DNA of 64,000 bases from Candidatus Tayloriibacteriota bacterium (GCA_052034805.1 JBPOID010000001.1:28184-92183), one strand, 5' to 3'. Numbered from the stretch's first letter, positions 5,603 to 58,062 are shown. Notes: generated from the sequence alone by a model not told the origin. Program-made: numbers and translations.

Positions 5603-6886
5603 ATGTATACTATGAGCAAAAACTTATCAACTGATTCATATAAAGGAGTTAGGGATTTCTATCCAGAGGATATGTCAGTACAGAATCATATATTCAGTAT
5701 ATGGAGAGATACTGTAGAAAAATATGGATATGAAGAATACAATGCATCTGTATTGGAACCTGCGGATCTATATAGAGCAAAGAGTGGTGAAGAAATAGTA
5801 AATGAACAAACATATACATTTACCGATAGAGGTGATAGAGAAGTAACTCTTCGTCCAGAAATGACTCCAACTGTAGCCAGAATGGTCGCAGGTAAACGTC
5901 GTGAATTAGTATTCCCTATTCGTTGGTATTCTATACCTAATCTCTTTAGATATGAACAGCCACAAAGAGGCAGATTGCGTGAACATTGGCAATTAAATGT
6001 AGATATATTTGGCATAACAGGAATACAAGCAGAAATTGAAATAATACAAATAGCATACGACATAACGAAAAAGTTAGGTCTAAATGATAATAATTTTGAA
6101 ATAAGAATAAATAATCGAAAGGTTATGAATTATATAACCAAAGAAGTATTCGGATTAGATGATAATAAATCACATAAGCTTTCAAAATTGATCGACAAGA
6201 AAGATAAAATGGATAAAAAAGCTTTTGAACAAGCTTCCGAAGAAATATTAGGAGAAAATACAATAAAATTCATAACATTACTTAATTCAAAAAATTTCGA
6301 AGAATTCACTACACATTTACCACAAACAAAAGAAGAACACGAAGGAATGAAAGAGATAAAAGGAGTTATAGAATCTCTAGAAAAATTAGGCATAACAAAT
6401 GCTAGATTCGATCAGACTTTGATGAGAGGTTTTGATTATTATACTGGTATAGTATTCGAAATATTCGACAAAAATCCAGAAAATAGAAGATCTGTATTCG
6501 GCGGAGGACGTTATGATGATTTACTTTCTCTATTCGGTGGAGAGAAAATACCAGCAGTAGGATTCGGTACTGGTGATGTTATATCTCGCGATTTATTGGA
6601 AACATACGGTAAATTAGATGAAATAAAGAAAGGTTCGGCAGATATAGCTATATGTGTAGTTGGTGAACAGAATACTGGATATGCACTGGACTTGGCACAA
6701 GATATGCGTAATAAAGGAAAAAGAGTAATGATTGATTTTTCATTAAAGAAATTAGGAGATAAAATATCAAATGCAGATAAAAGAAAAATAAAAAAAGTAA
6801 TTTGCATAGGTGATGAAGAAGTAAAAACAGGTAAATATAAAGTAAAGAATCTAGACAGCGGAAATGAAGAAGAATTTAATAAATAA
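5603..6886 (+). CDS. hisS: Histidyl-tRNA synthetase
   Basis: Class II aaRS motifs: KGVRDFYPED, RWYSIPNLFRYEQPQRGRLREHWQLNVDIFG, C-terminal anticodon-binding domain. Confidence 0.85.
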   Translation: MYTMSKNLSTDSYKGVRDFYPEDMSVQNHIFSIWRDTVEKYGYEEYNASVLEPADLYRAKSGEEIVNEQTYTFTDRGDREVTLRPEMTPTVARMVAGKRRELVFPIRWYSIPNLFRYEQPQRGRLREHWQLNVDIFGITGIQAEIEIIQIAYDITKKLGLNDNNFEIRINNRKVMNYITKEVFGLDDNKSHKLSKLIDKKDKMDKKAFEQASEEILGENTIKFITLLNSKNFEEFTTHLPQTKEEHEGMKEIKGVIESLEKLGITNARFDQTLMRGFDYYTGIVFEIFDKNPENRRSVFGGGRYDDLLSLFGGEKIPAVGFGTGDVISRDLLETYGKLDEIKKGSADIAICVVGEQNTGYALDLAQDMRNKGKRVMIDFSLKKLGDKISNADKRKIKKVICIGDEEVKTGKYKVKNLDSGNEEEFNK

Positions 6887-29311: not shown

Positions 29312-30811
29312 TTAGTTGGTAATGGTTATCATTCCATCGCTTTGATCTTCAGTGATCAAAGTCCCATATAAATCTGGTGGATTACACCATAGTCTAGATC
29401 CTTCTTTAACCATCTGTGTACAAGTCTTGCCATTATATAGCGGAACTTTTCCATCGTATAAAGAAACTTTTACTTTATATTGACCTGGTACAGTATCAGC
29501 CAGAATATCACCCGTTACATGATACTTAGAGATATTTAATAGATAAGAATAATTTGTAGTTGTAGCAGAAGAATCAATTGAATAAGAATCACCATTACCA
29601 ATAGATATTAAGAATTTATATCCCTCAGGTAATGTTTTATTAGCATTCCACTTAACAAAAGTATTATCGCCAATTTTTACAATCTCTCCTCCATTTGGAG
29701 AAATAATAGTAATAGAAGGTTCTAAATTCAATCCACCAGACATATTTGGATTTGTTCCTCTATATGAAGCTGATTCACATTTTGAATTATACATAACTTG
29801 ACCTTCTGGACATTTAGCAGTCGTGTTTGTTATGGGAATAAATTTAAATGTAGAAAGAATTTGTTTATTTATTTGATCAATTTCTTTTCCATCACTAATA
29901 GCAGGAAAACTAATCAGATAAGTTCTACCATTATAATTAACTACAACTCCATAATTATATTCTCCTGCATATGTTGAGGGTGTTTTCATACTATAACCAT
30001 TTACTCCTCCTTGAAATTTTACTATGGTTGAATATTCTGTTTTATTAATGTATTTTGATGTATTACAATCTCCATTATCTATTCTACATAAATTAATTGT
30101 GAGATCAGCAGCATCACCTGAAGTTTCTTTTTTACTTAGATAAGCACTATTATTTTCTGGTTTAACCAAAACAATTTGATCACTATATGGATAAGTAATA
30201 TCTGCATTAAGATTTGAATGTATTATCCAATCACTAGGATATTTAAATTCAAAACCAAGTCTTGAATTCGTATATGTCTTCCAATTAGAATTAGTTATAG
30301 AGTCTTTATTATCTCCTGGTGCATAAGAAAACTTAACTGATTTTATTGCAGGAAATTGCAATAATGTTTTCTCTACTATTGGATGAATTTTCGCAATACT
30401 AAATGATACACCAGCCCAACCATCTATATCCATCTTTAGTAATACATAAGCAGTTCCATCTACTACTTTAAGATAAGAGACTTGTTCCTCTGAAGGACTT
30501 ATCTGAGAAAGTATTACCTTTGCTGCAAGTTCTGCACTTGTTCTAACTATATCTGTAGTTGATGTTGAAATAGTCTTTTTTTCAAATTCCCAAGTTGTTA
30601 CAGGATTAACACCTCCATTTGAAACATATTCATTTACAGCTTTTGTATATGAAGGAATGTCCTTTGGAACCATTATTGTTACAGGTACTATATATTGTTC
30701 TCCATGGCAACAATTCAAAGATCGTATTGGTAATAAGAAATTATAGACAGCTCCTGCTACCCCTATCACCACAACCGCTATAATAACCCCCCAAATAATT
30801 TTTTTATTCAT
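29312..30811 (-). CDS. Membrane-anchored secreted protein with a GerMN-like domain, sitting between rpoB and rpoC
   Basis: N-terminal TM/signal, YLKVVDGTAYVLLKMDIDGWAGVSFSIAKIHPIVEKTLLQFPAIKSVKF (GerMN-like), Cys-containing beta-rich C-terminal half. Confidence 0.5.
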   Translation of the reverse strand: MNKKIIWGVIIAVVVIGVAGAVYNFLLPIRSLNCCHGEQYIVPVTIMVPKDIPSYTKAVNEYVSNGGVNPVTTWEFEKKTISTSTTDIVRTSAELAAKVILSQISPSEEQVSYLKVVDGTAYVLLKMDIDGWAGVSFSIAKIHPIVEKTLLQFPAIKSVKFSYAPGDNKDSITNSNWKTYTNSRLGFEFKYPSDWIIHSNLNADITYPYSDQIVLVKPENNSAYLSKKETSGDAADLTINLCRIDNGDCNTSKYINKTEYSTIVKFQGGVNGYSMKTPSTYAGEYNYGVVVNYNGRTYLISFPAISDGKEIDQINKQILSTFKFIPITNTTAKCPEGQVMYNSKCESASYRGTNPNMSGGLNLEPSITIISPNGGEIVKIGDNTFVKWNANKTLPEGYKFLISIGNGDSYSIDSSATTTNYSYLLNISKYHVTGDILADTVPGQYKVKVSLYDGKVPLYNGKTCTQMVKEGSRLWCNPPDLYGTLITEDQSDGMITITN

Positions 30812-34359: not shown

Positions 34360-35574
34360 CTAGAGAGTGGTAACAAACTTTAACTTATCTAGGCCGTAGG
34401 TAATCCAATTCGAGTTAAGGACACTAGTATCCTTACCGAAGTTGAAGGAAAAAAATGAGACCTCCGTCAACCCATGTCCCGAACCTGGGACTCGAGAAAG
34501 AGAACCGTCGAACACCAACTGCCGGCTCGTACCAGCCGGAATGACTAAATACTTATCAGTATCTCCTGCAATATTTGCAGGAATAGCTTCAGCTGGAGAA
34601 TACCGATAAATCGTATTGACACCCACCATGATACCAGCAGAAACAGCAGGATCCTTTGCTACATACAATGTGTCATTCCCTGCCGTCACTGTCATGTTAA
34701 AGGTGATTCCCTGACCAACCACTTCGTTGTTTACAACTATAAACGATCCAGCGGTGACTTTTAGTCCCGAAAGGACCGCACCGAGGGAAGTGAAGGTTAT
34801 ATCCTCACTTGATGGCATTGCATCTTTAACCGCAATAGCCTTGGAATTAGAATCCAAAACTTCTGGATTATTATACGTACCACCATCAACACCACTCACA
34901 GGGAAAGATGTGTACACTGTAGCTCCCGATAATGTTCCGTCAGTATCTTGATTCAATTTTCCATAAATACTGACCGTAACAGAGTTATCAATGGATAGTG
35001 CTTCAACCATGTTTTTGAACACTACAAATCCATCGAAACTACCCGTGATCGAATCAGCAGAATATGTCTGGCCATTTACCAGAAGCTTAATATCTGCAAA
35101 CAATGCACTGATCTCTTTCCTTGTGGTATGAAATCGAATCCTCAGATTCGAAAGTTTCCCAGAGGAGATACCTTGTGCTTTGATATCATATCTCCCAATC
35201 AGAACATTGTCTGTCTGTTCTGTTTTAGAGATCTGCACTACACTCATCATAGGAGATGAGGGTGAAATAGTGACCATAACAATATGCGTTAAATAATCAC
35301 TGACTCGATAGAATCTTTGCCCCACTGCCTCGGTGTCTACATAACTGTAAACACCGGAAGGATTCGCCGGAATGACCGCTAGATCATTCCAACTACCATC
35401 AACTTTGGTGGCATATTGAATCTGATAGCTTTTTCCAGGATCTCCCGTAAAGGAAATCTGTGGAATCTGCTTGATGCCGAGTGTGATCGGTGCTTGTGCC
35501 GACACCTCAAAACCAATTACAGACGCCATAACTACCACAACCAGCAATGCAATCAACTTGATAGTATTTTTCAT
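34360..35574 (-). CDS. Secreted beta-rich protein of unknown function, G+C-atypical
   Basis: Signal peptide MKNTIKLIALLVVVVMASVIGFEVSAQA. G+C clearly above the flanks. Own consensus promoter, GAGGAG SD and terminator. Confidence 0.6.
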   Translation of the reverse strand: MKNTIKLIALLVVVVMASVIGFEVSAQAPITLGIKQIPQISFTGDPGKSYQIQYATKVDGSWNDLAVIPANPSGVYSYVDTEAVGQRFYRVSDYLTHIVMVTISPSSPMMSVVQISKTEQTDNVLIGRYDIKAQGISSGKLSNLRIRFHTTRKEISALFADIKLLVNGQTYSADSITGSFDGFVVFKNMVEALSIDNSVTVSIYGKLNQDTDGTLSGATVYTSFPVSGVDGGTYNNPEVLDSNSKAIAVKDAMPSSEDITFTSLGAVLSGLKVTAGSFIVVNNEVVGQGITFNMTVTAGNDTLYVAKDPAVSAGIMVGVNTIYRYSPAEAIPANIAGDTDKYLVIPAGTSRQLVFDGSLSRVPGSGHGLTEVSFFSFNFGKDTSVLNSNWITYGLDKLKFVTTL

Positions 35575-40214: not shown

Positions 40215-40652
40215 ATGTTTACCTTTAGTCAATATCCTTATAAAAAAATATCCAATATATTAATGAAAGCCAAGAAAAGCCGGGAGCGTAAAGAGATAAT
40301 TCAGGCTCTTATTTCATTTACTGATATTTTATACAAAACTATTTCCAATATTTCATCTTATAAACCATTAATATTATTCACAATTGATCCTAATATGATT
40401 TTTCCAGGAAAACATAGAGAATTATCTACTGAAAAACTCGAAACAGAAATAACATCATCTGGCTATATTGATCAATTATTAGAAATAATTGGTATTTATA
40501 ATCATAGAGAAATATCAGATTCTATATCAGACGCTATATCAGACTTGCATGCAGATATGTCTCGTGGGATTAAAGATATTTCTGAGAAAAAAGAAATATT
40601 AATTAACTCTATTAATAATTTAAAAAAGGTTTTGCAGGATTTAGTATATTAA
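40215..40652 (+). CDS. Hypothetical protein (host-like AT-rich)
   Basis: ORF only. No recognisable domain. Confidence 0.35.
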   Translation: MFTFSQYPYKKISNILMKAKKSRERKEIIQALISFTDILYKTISNISSYKPLILFTIDPNMIFPGKHRELSTEKLETEITSSGYIDQLLEIIGIYNHREISDSISDAISDLHADMSRGIKDISEKKEILINSINNLKKVLQDLVY

Positions 40653-40660
40653 TTTTTAAG

Positions 40661-40677
40661 CTCTATAACACTACCAT
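40661..40677 (+). repeat. Island direct repeat copy R1 (CTCTATAACACTACCAT, followed by CTAAACCCTAAA)
   Basis: Core 17-mer shared with copies at 41331, 41721 and 42146. Confidence 0.75.
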
Positions 40678-40784
40678 CCTCTAAACCCTAAAAAATCAAC
40701 AAATTTAATATCCGCAAGAATCGTCCCCATTTTTTATTTTCAATCTCATCTTATTCATAAGCATATAAAGATGGTTTTATATAA

Positions 40785-40824
40785 CAAGTAAAATTAAACC
40801 GCACTTTGCATAAGCATTGTGCGG
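40785..40824 (-). terminator. Rho-independent terminator downstream of island ORF A
   Basis: Minus-strand hairpin CCGCAC-14-GTGCGG followed by TTTAATTTT. A second hairpin GTGACAG/TGTCAC lies at 40834-40859. Confidence 0.45.
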
Positions 40825-40953
40825 TCTCAAAATGTGACAGTTTGTTCTCGAGATGTCACCCATCTCAACGTACTGCATACGAGGCTCACGCTTTTAAAAA
40901 GGTGACAACAATGGAGCTTCTGAATTGAAGGCGGCTCCATCCTTCATTCGTCA

Positions 40954-41214
40954 CTATCCTGCGATAGCTATGAACGTGCCTTGCTCAATAACATGCTTTG
41001 GGTCCACAAATGGTCCGTACCCCTCGATGTAAAGATGGTAAAAACCAATCGAATCCCGAGAGCAGGCCAAGACAGGGCTTTTGAACCCAAAGAGGAGTAA
41101 CGATATTTCCTCATAGGATGCAACATTCATTTTCTCACGTCTCAATTCCTCCAAGATTTCTCCAAGAGGTTTTGACTTATTGACGTGGACGAAAGTGTGT
41201 TTGCTGAGGCTCAT
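40954..41214 (-). CDS. Island ORF A, 86-aa hypothetical protein (MSLSKHTFVHVNKSKPLGEILEELRRE...)
   Basis: ATG at 41214 with AAAGGA SD 5 nt upstream. The track's longer form starts at a TTG. G+C-rich. Confidence 0.5.
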   Translation of the reverse strand: MSLSKHTFVHVNKSKPLGEILEELRREKMNVASYEEISLLLFGFKSPVLACSRDSIGFYHLYIEGYGPFVDPKHVIEQGTFIAIAG

Positions 41215-41290
41215 AAAGGTCCTTTTTCTGGTGCTCAAAGGCGCACCTGCTTAAAGCCTTGAAATTCAATGATCTAATTACTTATATCAT

Positions 41291-41299
41291 TATATCACA
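41291..41299 (-). promoter_or_regulatory. Extended -10 (TGATATAAT) for island ORF A
   Basis: Minus-strand TGATATAAT (plus-strand sequence ATTATATCA at 41291-41299). About 70-nt leader with a hairpin GGTGC/GCACC. Confidence 0.35.
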
Positions 41300-41330
41300 C
41301 TTACAGTATAATGTACAGTTTAAACCCAAA

Positions 41331-41347
41331 CTCTATAACACCACCAT
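41331..41347 (+). repeat. Island direct repeat copy R2 (CTCTATAACACCACCAT, preceded by TAAACCCAAA)
   Basis: Lies in the divergent A/B promoter region, about 60 nt upstream of the ORF B start codon. Confidence 0.8.
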
Positions 41348-41358
41348 TTCCTCAATCA

Positions 41359-41387
41359 TTGACTAATGACTATTATAATGCTATTCT
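41359..41387 (+). promoter_or_regulatory. Putative promoter of island ORF B (TTGACT-17-TATTCT)
   Basis: TTGACT at 41359-41364. A TATAAT at 41374-41379 is only 9 nt away, too close to pair with it, so TATTCT at 41382-41387 is proposed as the -10. Confidence 0.3.
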
Positions 41388-41407
41388 GATTTCAGAAAGG
41401 AAGTGCT

Positions 41408-41659
41408 ATGGCCACACAAATACCGGAGCAATTTATTTCCAAACTCAGTGAATTCATCTCGAGTCTGGACCATCAGACTCAGGAGATCCTTTTGTACTAT
41501 TACGGCGCAGATCAATCATGGAAAAAGAGAACTCTACAACAAGTCGAAGACAGATTTCATGTGGGAACAAGTATCGTCGGTAAGGTTGTTGCAGAACAAA
41601 TCTCTGAATTTCGACAACTGCATAATTTCGACTATGCCACTTGCATGATCCTCATGTAG
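41408..41659 (+). CDS. Island ORF B, 83-aa sigma-70 region-4 / YlxM-like HTH protein
   Basis: QEILLYYYGADQSWKKRTLQQVEDRFHVGTSIVGKVVAEQISEF aligns with sigma r4.2 [18 protein letters not shown] and the YlxM pattern LYY.DDLSL.EIAEEFDVSRQAV. SD AAAGGAAG. Confidence 0.55.
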   Translation: MATQIPEQFISKLSEFISSLDHQTQEILLYYYGADQSWKKRTLQQVEDRFHVGTSIVGKVVAEQISEFRQLHNFDYATCMILM

Positions 41660-41672
41660 ACTGATCTCTAAG

Positions 41673-41708
41673 CGGCGCTGCTATTAAATTTGCAGTGCCG
41701 TTTTTTGT
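41673..41708 (+). terminator. Rho-independent terminator of ORF B
   Basis: CGGCGCTGC-9-GCAGTGCCG hairpin plus TTTTTT. Confidence 0.6.
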
Positions 41709-41720
41709 TTACAATTTAAA

Positions 41721-41737
41721 CTCTATCTCACCACCAT
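41721..41737 (+). repeat. Island direct repeat copy R3 (CTCTATCTCACCACCAT)
   Basis: Sits between the convergent terminators of ORF B and ORF C. Confidence 0.8.
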
Positions 41738-41744
41738 CTTCTCC

Positions 41745-41775
41745 CAACAGAAAACCCACCTCTCATGCATGGGTT
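41745..41775 (-). terminator. Rho-independent terminator of ORF C
   Basis: Minus-strand AACCCA-11-TGGGTT hairpin followed by TTTTCTGTT. Confidence 0.45.
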
Positions 41776-41796
41776 CTCCGTGCTTGAGATAGTGGG

Positions 41797-42075
41797 TTAG
41801 ATTCGGACAAACAATTTCTGGTAGAGCTCATCAAACTGCCCCACCGGATGTTCTGACAAAAACTGTTCGAAGTAGTTCTGCGCATCTGGATGTAAAACCG
41901 AACTGTCTCTGGTTCCCAAATTACAGTTGATTTTCCCGTTGCTCGCAGCCGTTACCATTGCAACTCGTCGGCTTTGCACAACTGCTTGACGGTTGGTCAA
42001 GATGTCAGCCAGAACCACAAGTGCGACACGCTCAGCTTCTGTCAATGTCTGCCATAACTGTTCAAGTTTTTTCAT
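41797..42075 (-). CDS. Island ORF C, 92-aa hypothetical protein (MKKLEQLWQTLTEAERVALVVLADIL...)
   Basis: ATG with AAAGGA SD 9 nt upstream. Promoter TTGACA-17-TAGACT. No recognised domain. Confidence 0.5.
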   Translation of the reverse strand: MKKLEQLWQTLTEAERVALVVLADILTNRQAVVQSRRVAMVTAASNGKINCNLGTRDSSVLHPDAQNYFEQFLSEHPVGQFDELYQKLFVRI

Positions 42076-42100
42076 TGTGCTAAATCCTTTCTTACTTTAT

Positions 42101-42129
42101 AGTCTAATACATTTTAGTTCTTGTGTCAA
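42101..42129 (-). promoter_or_regulatory. sigma70-type promoter TTGACA-17-TAGACT for ORF C
   Basis: Minus-strand TTGACA (plus 42124-42129) and TAGACT (plus 42101-42106). Confidence 0.45.
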
Positions 42130-42145
42130 GTACATAAACCCTAAA

Positions 42146-42159
42146 CTTTATCTCACCAC
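42146..42159 (+). repeat. Island direct repeat copy R4 (CTTTATCTCACCAC, preceded by AAACCCTAAA)
   Basis: Lies exactly between the divergent -35 boxes of P_C (42124-42129) and P_D (42169-42174). Confidence 0.75.
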
Positions 42160-42168
42160 TTTTTACAC

Positions 42169-42198
42169 TTGACATAAGTTATTAAGTCATGTTATGAT
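42169..42198 (+). promoter_or_regulatory. Near-consensus extended -10 promoter TTGACA-18-TGTTATGAT
   Basis: TTGACA at 42169-42174, TGnTATGAT at 42190-42198. Confidence 0.55.
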
Positions 42199-42204
42199 AC
42201 TTAA

Positions 42205-42392
42205 CAGATTGAGTAGCCGTTGACGATACATACGATTCAACAGATGTCGGATTCAAGATGCAGCCGGAAATACTACAAGTATTATCGGAAGTCAATCATT
42301 GACGACAGGATCGTTGATATTAGGCTAAGGCCGAAAAGTCCAAGAATGGGTACTCTTCTAGCCACAATCAGAAATGATTGTGGCATTTTTTT
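42205..42392 (+). ncRNA. Candidate ~185-nt small RNA (island unit D). The track ORF 42220..42405 is probably not translated.
   Basis: Strong promoter and a strong terminator (9-bp stem GCCACAATC/GATTGTGGC at 42361-42384 plus T7) bracket about 185 nt. There is no SD before the TTG or ATG start, and the ORF reads through the terminator hairpin. Internal hairpin CCGGAAATAC-5-GTATTATCGG. Confidence 0.4.
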
Positions 42393-42431
42393 GTTCGAAC
42401 CTTAAAGTTTATGGTACTACTATACTCTAAC

Positions 42432-42460
42432 TTGACGATATTAGTAATACTTGTTATGAT
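42432..42460 (+). promoter_or_regulatory. Second copy of the extended -10 promoter (TTGACG-17-TGTTATGAT)
   Basis: Near-duplicate of the 42169-42198 promoter (ACTTGAC[A/G]...TGTTATGAT). Confidence 0.5.
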
Positions 42461-42466
42461 TATCCG

Positions 42467-42563
42467 CATGAAGATCTTTAATCAAGTGAATTAATAGAAC
42501 TACAAGGCCACGGCAATCATTTTCAAGCGCTCATTTCTTCGGATTTGAGCGCCTTTATTTTTA
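42467..42563 (+). ncRNA. Candidate ~95-nt small RNA (island unit 2)
   Basis: Promoter at 42432-42460, terminator hairpin GCGCTCA-13-TGAGCGC (42527-42552) plus CTTTATTTTT. Longest ORF 8 aa. Contains GCCACGGCAATCATTTT, similar to one arm of the unit-D terminator. Confidence 0.35.
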
Positions 42564-42640
42564 TAGACTACAATTTAATAAAAAAGAACGCCGTACCCGA
42601 AGGTCGTGCATTCTGTTTGAAAGTTTTGAGGATTAAATCC

Positions 42641-43060
42641 TCATGATATCGCCTCTTCGATTGTTTTTTTCCAGTGAAGAGCGAATTGCTCTTCATCCTG
42701 GGCCTCCCCACTCCGTCCACAGAAAGGGGGATACACATCAATCGCCTTAATCTTATGGTATAGTCCATGGTCCAGACCTCTATACGGAGTGACCACAATG
42801 ACGCCATTCAGGTTTTCTGGAAGTCCCGTGTCTTCACAACATGGACAAGCGGTTAAGACAAAGAGTGTTCTGGGATCACAGGCATTTTTTGATGCCACTT
42901 CTTGTACCACCCTATGAATGATTGGTGTCATCTTTAAGAGACTCTTTGCAAGTTCGTGAGATGCCCATTCAAAAGGACTTGAATATCCAAAGATAATTTT
43001 CATAATATAATTTGGTTGAGTGTGGTTTGAAAGTTCATAATCTGCATGACATGATGTCAT
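42641..43060 (-). CDS. Island ORF E, Cys-rich 120-139-aa protein (start at 43060 or at the internal MKIIFGY at 43003)
   Basis: MKIIFGYSSPFEW ... LTACPCCEDTG ... PPFCGRSGE. No SD at either start. Promoter TTGACA-17-TAATAT. Weak resemblance to Rossmann-like N-terminal motifs (Ndt/DNPH1-like [KT]I[IY]FG, or DsrE-like); not secure. Confidence 0.5.
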   Translation of the reverse strand: MTSCHADYELSNHTQPNYIMKIIFGYSSPFEWASHELAKSLLKMTPIIHRVVQEVASKNACDPRTLFVLTACPCCEDTGLPENLNGVIVVTPYRGLDHGLYHKIKAIDVYPPFCGRSGEAQDEEQFALHWKKTIEEAIS

Positions 43061-43127
43061 ACAAGTCGATTACAATCTTTCTTCCAAACTCAACGTATTT
43101 ACTTTCAAAGAACTCTACTATATAGAT

Positions 43128-43156
43128 ATATTATCATACTATATGATATATGTCAA
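43128..43156 (-). promoter_or_regulatory. sigma70-type promoter TTGACA-17-TAATAT for ORF E
   Basis: Minus-strand TTGACA (plus 43151-43156) and TAATAT (plus 43128-43133). Same architecture as the 35641-35669 promoter. Confidence 0.45.
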
Positions 43157-43192
43157 GTGTATTTGTATAGTGTATAGATAATGTATACCCCC

Positions 43193-57986: not shown

Positions 57987-58062
57987 TGGAGCCACCTCCC
58001 AGACTTGAACTGGGGACCTTCGCTTTACAAAAGCGTTGCTCTACCAACTGAGCTAAGGTGGC
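57987..58062 (-). tRNA. tRNA-Thr (anticodon UGU), CCA encoded
   Basis: Hand-folded cloverleaf: 7-bp acceptor GCCACCT/AGGTGGC, D-arm GCTC/GAGC, anticodon loop TTTGTAA, T-arm CCCAG/CTGGG with TTCAAGT loop, 3' CCA. Confidence 0.85.

Follow-up and report, generated by a model that had tools for sequence, protein, structure and literature searches.

The 64,000-nt window analysed here, from a Candidatus Tayloriibacteriota bacterium (GCA_052034805.1, JBPOID010000001.1:28184-92183), carries between the convergent genes rnr and smc an island of small transcription units (40655-43192) that is probably a stack of miniature foreign elements, each bounded by copies of a phage attachment (att) core. A preliminary description of this DNA had reported that the island is richer in G+C than its surroundings, with the rise ending at smc, and a sliding-window check bears this out: the island has 39.4% G+C versus 32.0% in the remaining window, and because other 2538-nt windows average 32.1% (standard deviation 2.0, maximum 37.2), it stands at z = 3.6. 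The rise starts near 40.8 kb, reaches peaks of 45–47% (300-nt windows) at 40.8–41.2, 41.7–42.0 and 42.6–42.9 kb, and ends at the smc stop codon. The Shine-Dalgarno (SD) style also differs from that of the flanks, as had been claimed, and codon composition does too; third-position G+C is 0.39–0.52 in the island open reading frames (ORFs) against 0.12–0.28 in nearly all host genes, and AAAGGA-type SD sequences stand upstream of ORFs A, B and C, whereas an SD-like 4-mer precedes just 3 of the 43 host genes of at least 150 aa in the window. ORFs A, B, C and E were found where they had been placed, and each unit has its own sigma70-like promoter (score 9–11 of 12) and its own intrinsic terminator (a hairpin followed by a T-run). 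The units are small and alternate in direction, as described, although they number six rather than five: the four ORFs and two small-RNA-like units. Neither an integrase nor a flanking tRNA had been seen at the island, and our searches agree; the integrase search of the window was negative, its sole tRNA lies at 57987, far from the island, and ARAGORN calls no tRNA within the island or within the arrays of other contigs described below. The G+C content, third-position G+C and SD usage, all atypical for this genome, support the view that the island is foreign DNA.

The units are separated by a repeat of about 35 nt with the consensus CTAAACCYTAAACTCTATMWCACCACCATCTTCT, copies of which share one orientation regardless of the direction of the gene they enclose, lie 261–670 nt apart, and are conserved in sequence without an internal palindrome. 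The island had been called repeat-punctuated, and a direct-repeat family is indeed present; what had gone unrecognised is its relation to ychF and to att sites. On the minus strand the repeat, GAAGATGGTGGTGTTATAGAGTTTAAGGTTTAG, translates to E-D-G-G-V-I-E-F-K-V-stop, the C-terminus of YchF (a GTPase and ribosome-binding ATPase), and it corresponds to the last ~10 codons of ychF plus the stop, with both reading frame and stop codon kept; the ychF end in contig L119, for example, reads ...EGKEYVVKDGDVMEFKI-stop. When at most three mismatches are allowed, the repeat pattern has three matches in the 64-kb window against 0.01 expected, and a profile search limited to the island supports four copies, R1 to R4 (Table 1). 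There are no other copies anywhere in the window outside the island, and the repeat has no likeness to the C-termini encoded by rnr and smc. For the last unit, cassette E, a degenerate repeat in inverted orientation was suggestive by eye at the right end and was set aside, as the profile search did not support it. Iterons, CRISPR and DNA uptake sequences were rejected as the identity of the repeat because of its spacing and its restriction to one locus. We also sought ychF, greA and gltX in the 64-kb window and found none of them; because no ychF is present, the site of the island is ectopic with respect to the gene that its repeat copies. When metagenome contigs were scanned for the repeat pattern, many loci came up, mostly with coding sequence adjoining the match, and about 25 of the matches to the pattern or profile are true ychF 3' ends.

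The same sequence is linked to an integrase. In contigs L194 and L170 a protein of the Phage_integrase family (E = 1.5e-25) is encoded to the right of the repeat, at a distance of ~350 nt, and relatives of it that are 93% identical in L236, an NCBI contig of a metagenome-assembled genome (MAG), and 70% identical in L235 are followed by small co-oriented genes encoding RusA, a DnaC/IstB-like protein, Acb2/Tad1 and an N6_N4 methyltransferase. In L236 the integrase is separated from the phage-like genes by the core, which reads E-D-G-G-A-I-E-F-K-I-stop (nhmmer E = 9e-11), and this arrangement is that of a phage attachment site (attP); L239, a viral contig from IMG/VR, has a 75%-identical integrase together with a homologous attP, in which inverted repeats flank ...TAGTTTAAGATATAA. 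Beside the core in other arrays, and beside the integrase in phage-like elements, there is an 'arm' module. Integrase, arm and core are common to L236, L153, L170 and L194; divergence among the four sets in where the core ends on its outer side, and past that point come phage genes, a small-RNA cassette array or other sequence. All four have an arm-related motif, TTGAGAATCGTCGATTTGCCCGTCTA, between core and integrase, and positions 40733-40804 of the window, to the right of R1, are 77% identical over 61–74 nt to the arm in L182 (11563-11623) and L120 (3257-3330). Judged by these layouts, the repeat appears to serve as the att core for phage-like integrative elements whose target in Patescibacteria is the ychF 3' end. 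The array-bearing and phage-like loci have a G+C content of 36–46%. As to cargo, the Acb2/Tad1-hairpin-family protein in L236 is encoded at 6254-6442, within the element whose attP carries the ychF core; Acb2/Tad1 is a family of anti-CBASS/anti-Thoeris sponges, and its occurrence here hints at counter-defence genes in Patescibacteria phages.

Arrays similar to that of the window were recovered among Patescibacteria contigs from the metagenome scan. The ychF end is accompanied by three further repeat copies in L119 and by one extra copy each in L126 and L115, while L182 and L120, which overlap by 127 nt, together give the order greA, repeat, 133-aa ORF, repeat, ~240 nt, repeat, arm with a 179-aa ORF, and ychF; in each of these the array lies immediately downstream of ychF. 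L153 has four repeat copies and two small-RNA units. Each cassette of these arrays holds one small ORF or one structured small RNA (z = -3.4 to -5.2); next to the repeat there is a TTGACA-type -35 element at a distance of 5–9 nt or else an abutting terminator hairpin. One such terminator-hairpin module is shared beside the repeat by the window, L119 and a second strain of the window species, L007, at 82–90% identity: R3 with its hairpin is 90% identical to L007 12342-12425 and 82% to L119 1195-1278, and a different ORF follows in each. An empty and an occupied site with identical flanks were also found, in L102 (8850-9064) and L126 (7700-8480), respectively; the insert in L126 is 570 bp long, contains one ORF, for a small membrane-like protein, and is bounded by direct repeats of ~125 nt that include the core. 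Rfam recognised no family for the small-RNA units of the L119 and L153 arrays. A cassette on the minus strand of L119 (722-862) combines a promoter of the 12-of-12 class and a terminator with a tRNA-like RNA (z = -5.2) in which a long acceptor-like stem and a GGGTTCAAATCCC T-arm are accompanied by an additional hairpin; it is not called as a tRNA by either ARAGORN or Rfam.

Strain L007 (ENA ERZ4216102, a 114-kb contig located by exact look-up of the rnr and smc proteins) shows how quickly the content of the junction changes. Its flanks are 99.3–99.6% identical to those of the window, yet its rnr/smc gap measures 854 nt versus 3.0 kb, and its array contains the repeat three times, together with two small ORFs, of 87 and 74 aa, that differ from those of the window. 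Missing are ORFs A, B and C, small RNA 1 and the whole of cassette E with ORF E; the 145-aa gene that precedes R1 in the window is strain-variable as well, the repeat in L007 directly following the rnr stop. Besides the R3-plus-hairpin segment, only small RNA 2 is common to the two arrays: its body (42468-42561) matches L007 12694-12787 at 98% identity and in that strain lies right against the smc stop; the stretch with promoter and repeat is not the same in the two. The remaining contigs that carry the island ORFs are identical to the window or at least 99.97% so. The organism of the window falls in the Paceibacteria-like part of Patescibacteria, and its rnr is 74–76% identical to that of MAGs carrying the label Ca. 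Taylorbacteria or 'Saccharibacteria'. In more distant relatives (L010–L020) the gap between the convergent rnr and smc is anywhere from 10 to 1900 nt long, and its contents, small genes or units resembling small RNAs, are unrelated and in some cases G+C-richer than their own genome; several MAG contigs of relatives end just past rnr. Such contig ends and varied gaps suggest population-level variability at the junction across the clade, and the junction is a general insertion hotspot there. The repeat itself was sought at the rnr/smc junction of 16 related genomes and was absent.

Three other features of the window may be recorded here. A 499-aa ORF between rpoC and rpoB (29312-30811, minus strand; host-like G+C of 0.31, third-position G+C of 0.14, no Pfam match on record) is missing from L007, where rpoB and rpoC are adjacent; a strain-variable gene inside the rpoBC pair is unusual. 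A 404-aa ORF (34360-35574, minus strand) is foreign-like in composition (G+C 0.43, third-position G+C 0.40) and has a GAGGAG SD; it has no match in Pfam, PADLOC or NCBIfam and is present in both the window strain and L007. The SMC protein of the window, at 741 aa, is short for a bacterial SMC, typically ~1100–1200 aa long, and the SMC proteins of relatives align with it end to end.

Table 1. Features between the rnr stop and the smc stop (window coordinates; E values from the search limited to the island).
Feature	Position	Strand	Description
145-aa ORF	40215..40652	+	A+T-rich (25.8% G+C); between rnr stop and first repeat; outside the G+C island
Repeat R1	40648..40684	+	Putative att-core copy; nhmmer E = 8e-8; pattern match; minus-strand translation E-D-G-S-V-I-E-L-K-N-stop
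Arm-module remnant (putative)	40716..40804	not assigned	GCAAGAATCGTC ... TTTATTTTCAA ...
Cassette 1	40790..41317	-	Promoter 41317-41289, ORF A, ~160-nt structured 3' region, terminator hairpin near 40794-40822
ORF A	41214-40954	-	86 aa; SD AAAGGA
Repeat R2	41318..41354	+	nhmmer E = 3e-7; minus strand G-N-G-G-V-I-E-F-G-F
Cassette 2	41359..41706	+	Promoter 41359-41387, ORF B, terminator near 41672-41706
ORF B	41408-41659	+	83 aa; SD AAAGGAAG
Repeat R3	41706..41743	+	Best-conserved copy; nhmmer E = 1.5e-9; minus strand E-D-G-G-E-I-E-F-K-L-stop
Cassette 3	41744..42129	-	Promoter 42129-42101, ORF C, conserved terminator-hairpin module 41744-41799 abutting R3
ORF C	42075-41797	-	92 aa; SD AAAGGA
Repeat R4	42135..42168	+	Partly degenerate; nhmmer E = 0.005; reads K-S-G-E-I-K-F-R-V
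Cassette 4	42169..42395	+	Promoter TTGACA-18-TATGAT (11 of 12) abutting R4, small RNA 1, terminator 42361-42384
Small RNA 1	about 42205-42392	+	Long rod-like hairpin
Repeat R5 (putative)	42399..42431	+	Strongly degenerate; ~53% identical to R3 of L007; tentative, placed by position only
Cassette 5	42432..42562	+	Promoter TTGACG-17-TATGAT, small RNA 2, terminator hairpin 42527-42552
Small RNA 2	about 42467-42561	+	Promoter and terminator
Cassette E	42563..43192	-	Promoter 43156-43128, ORF E, terminator near 42586-42612; between small RNA 2 terminator and smc stop
ORF E	43003-42641	-	120 aa from conserved Met; 139-aa version from 43060

The products of the island were judged in the preliminary description to resemble no known family, and the island ORFs indeed have no match above noise in Pfam, PHROGs, PADLOC or NCBIfam; the 145-aa ORF likewise has none in Pfam, PADLOC or NCBIfam. 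No match was obtained by tblastn of A, B and C against phages or by blastn of the island against phage and plasmid collections, and ORF B found only itself in a database of 5.8 billion proteins. A word-indexed protein search with A, B, C and E concatenated was also negative, a null that carries no information, since ORF E searched by itself later yielded 35 homologues, and for A and C no exhaustive search was made. The homologues of ORF E, from an exhaustive protein search, are about 92–158 aa long (best E = 6e-26); one further match, to a 499-aa repetitive protein, was weak and was discarded as spurious. Its length had been given as 120–139 aa, and since all 34 aligned homologues begin at its second Met (43003), the start is most likely there and the shorter version the correct one. 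The CPCC motif is invariant among these 34 proteins, V(S/T)PF.GID and YPPF motifs are conserved, and an AlphaFold2 model of ORF E has a pLDDT of 94.8 and no structural neighbour in structure searches; ORF E is a real gene of an uncharacterised CPCC-motif family.

Of the two RNA units, small RNA 1 (about 190 nt) is predicted to fold into a very stable rod (-61 kcal/mol, z = -5.9), and small RNA 2 has a weak fold (z = -1.4 to -1.7). Neither reaches the gathering score of any Rfam family, the best sub-threshold match being Spot_42 (E = 0.34). Rfam searches of window and island, at gathering and E-value thresholds, gave no family for the small-RNA units, and the idea that the island is a single large structured RNA was dropped. 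Between the ORF A stop and its terminator lies a further structured RNA of ~160 nt (40790-40953, minus strand; z = -3.1), which could be a 3'-untranslated-region element or a separate small RNA. A 12-nt near-palindrome, TCAATCATTGAC, occurs exactly twice in the window, once overlapping the -35 region of ORF B (41352-41363) and once inside small RNA 1 (42292-42303); with one mismatch allowed there are 3 occurrences against 0.64 expected, and the sequence, noticed after the fact, may be an operator.

We consider it probable that the island is a tandem accretion array of miniature cassettes resembling cis-mobilizable elements (CIMEs), that is, integrase-less elements that keep their att sites, assembled at a phage att core; accretion of foreign mini-elements is preferred to a single acquired module because the repeat that bounds the units matches the att site of integrase-carrying elements. 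The ancestors would have been temperate phage-like elements with a tyrosine integrase and an attP-like core ~350 bp from its gene, which would insert themselves into the ychF 3' end and restore the gene in doing so. Repeated integration, followed each time by loss of the integrase and most of the cargo, would yield stacks of att-bounded units, although the same stack might be reached by capture of small circles carrying the core; by either route, each unit would be left with a single gene for a small protein, or a single structured small RNA, that is self-sufficient in its transcription. In the present species the stack would have come to lie at the convergent rnr/smc junction rather than beside ychF, and its turnover between strains would probably proceed by recombination between cores, with an integrase acting in trans or by homologous recombination. 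Integrase-mediated recombination may both have made the array of the window and still remodel it. Donors would be SD-using genomes or phages of about 36–46% G+C, and it is to such donors that we would attribute the compositional island.

Streptococcal integrative elements of the ICESt1/ICESt3 family are a precedent, as they decay to CIMEs and then accrete in tandem at the 3' end of their target gene (PMC5704250). As there, integrase-less elements lie between direct repeats that have the sequence of a conserved gene's 3' end, the stack is tandem with one repeat orientation, integrase-bearing relatives use the same att core, and content differs between close strains. The units in the window, putative CIMEs, are in contrast only 130–670 bp long with one gene or small RNA each, the associated elements are phage-like and not conjugative, the target is ychF in Patescibacteria, and the array does not adjoin its target gene. 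Integration at the 3' ends of protein-coding genes, with the gene end regenerated, is exemplified by SGI1 at trmE (PMC8409611), and phage att cores near the integrase gene have been described (PMC12540744). The elements related to the island share with such prophages and islands an attP containing the terminal codons and stop of the target, a core a few hundred bp from the integrase and the direct repeats left by integration; whereas those islands are single and large, the window has a stack of mini-remnants at an ectopic site. Phage morons, or lysogenic-conversion genes beside att sites, are autonomous transcription units of divergent composition. The cassettes resemble them in having their own promoter and terminator and a composition unlike their surroundings, and differ in lying outside any prophage, each individually bounded by the putative att core. 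Integration into gene 3' ends and tandem accretion are already established; the present case differs in its target (ychF) and phylum, in being extremely miniaturised, in having small-RNA cassettes, in recurring across contigs and in the ectopic position of the array. In the literature, two papers on pneumococcal mobile elements mention ychF, and we found no description of ychF-core cassette arrays or of integrons in the Candidate Phyla Radiation (CPR).

Several findings weigh against accretion at an att core as the origin of the island. The array is off the canonical target, between rnr (with the 145-aa ORF) and smc, with no ychF in 64 kb, and ychF never occurs at the rnr/smc junction of the relatives examined; that the array arrived at this site from elsewhere would have to be supposed. 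The lack of an integrase extends to the examined part of L007, as would also be expected of integrase-less units. Integrases 55–60% identical to the core-linked one are widespread in Patescibacteria, and some of them may be housekeeping Xer-type enzymes. The bounding of units is incomplete: R5 is barely recognisable and went undetected in the profile search of the island, and neither cassette E nor the 145-aa gene has a detectable flanking core. The breakpoint of small RNA 2 homology between the window and L007 lies near the transcription start and not at the repeat. Homologous recombination between repeats could account for the deletions and for the L102/L126 pair as well. Finally, no cassette was found in two different arrays of the contigs compared, which counts against individual cassette mobility in particular.

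That mobility is central to the most substantial of the alternatives, in which the cassettes of 130–670 bp are not debris but themselves the mobile units of an integron-like gene-capture system based on a phage-type tyrosine integrase and a duplex ychF-end core. Cassettes would be excised and inserted as circles, the array would be a store of small genes and small RNAs that drive their own expression, one of them tRNA-like, and hypervariable arrays would settle also at secondary sites such as the rnr/smc junction. Sedentary chromosomal integrons, such as the Vibrio superintegron with its VCR repeats, are long arrays of short cassettes of mostly orphan genes; an integron has an adjacent intI with attI and a Pc promoter, its cassettes are mostly promoterless and co-oriented, and its attC sites are imperfect palindromes with R''/L''-L'/R' boxes, conserved in structure more than in sequence. 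The arrays described here share the short orphan-gene cassettes, the conserved repeat between them and the strain-variable content, and some integron cassettes do have promoters of their own. Individual mobility would also accommodate the compactness of the complete transcription units, with a promoter 5–9 nt from the repeat or a terminator abutting it in several genomes, the small-RNA-only cassettes of 130–240 nt in the window, L153 and L119, the one single-cassette empty/occupied pair and the fast turnover between strains with nearly identical flanks. The window, however, has no intI or attI (no tyrosine recombinase at all) and its array is flanked by rnr and smc; its repeat is a non-palindromic duplex core of ~35 bp that copies a gene end and does not form attC-like hairpins; its cassettes face both ways, all with promoter and terminator; and the integrase linked to the core is an ordinary member of the Phage_integrase family that belongs to a prophage-like element. 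Moreover, no cassette recurs in different contexts, some cassettes contain arm-module remnants typical of decayed larger elements, and no integrase lies beside the arrays except in apparent whole prophages. We therefore regard individually mobile cassettes as rather unlikely, and accretion of decayed elements as the better account.

The preliminary description had proposed a horizontally acquired regulatory, toxin-antitoxin-like or defence-like module, and its first half stands, the DNA being foreign and, by comparison with L007, strain-variable. That A, B, C, E and the small RNAs jointly form one functional unit, a regulator-containing toxin-antitoxin, abortive-infection or defence system, is by contrast very improbable. 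ORF B does have a sub-threshold likeness to sigma70 region 4 and helix-turn-helix proteins (Sigma70_r4, E = 0.025; phrog_36, E = 0.0023), TCAATCATTGAC is placed both at its -35 region and within small RNA 1, A, B, C, small RNA 1 and E are lost together from L007, and the 74-aa ORF of L007, a hydrophobic stretch followed by basic residues, recalls small membrane toxins; but the database searches for such systems were empty, att cores separate the units, every one of which is promoted and terminated individually, the cassettes of other arrays are unrelated, and another Patescibacteria chromosome has a 52%-identical ORF E homologue on its own next to RNase Y, with A, B and C having no homologues there. 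The units look like independent cassettes separated by copies of the core and not like a single coherent module. Equally hard to credit is an explanation in which the repeats belong natively to a permissive convergent hotspot, as regulatory or terminator elements, their likeness to ychF is incidental, and the variable content came by transformation and homologous or illegitimate recombination. It would account for rnr/smc gaps of such varied length in relatives, with unrelated and often G+C-richer content, for the MAG contigs that break just after rnr, and for the lack of repeats flanking cassette E and the 145-aa gene. A native element would not, however, be expected to preserve the ychF reading frame and stop codon, to occur at the ychF 3' end in ~25 loci and beside integrases in attP-like layouts, to be found nowhere else in the 64-kb window, and to be missing from the rnr/smc junctions of relatives.

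Patescibacteria, or CPR bacteria, have tiny streamlined genomes in which the gain of accessory genes is little understood. The locus in the window and at least five similar arrays elsewhere suggest that a recurrent hotspot is associated with the 3' end of ychF, at which single small genes and small RNAs accumulate and turn over between near-identical strains. Should single cassettes prove mobile, an integron-like system would have evolved a second time, independently. For the temperate phage-like elements of Patescibacteria, the work offers a concrete candidate att core and integrase family, which could aid prophage and host prediction and eventually the development of genetic tools. The self-expressed orphan genes, including the CPCC-motif family of ORF E and the structured small RNAs, are candidates for a role in phage-host or symbiont-host interaction.

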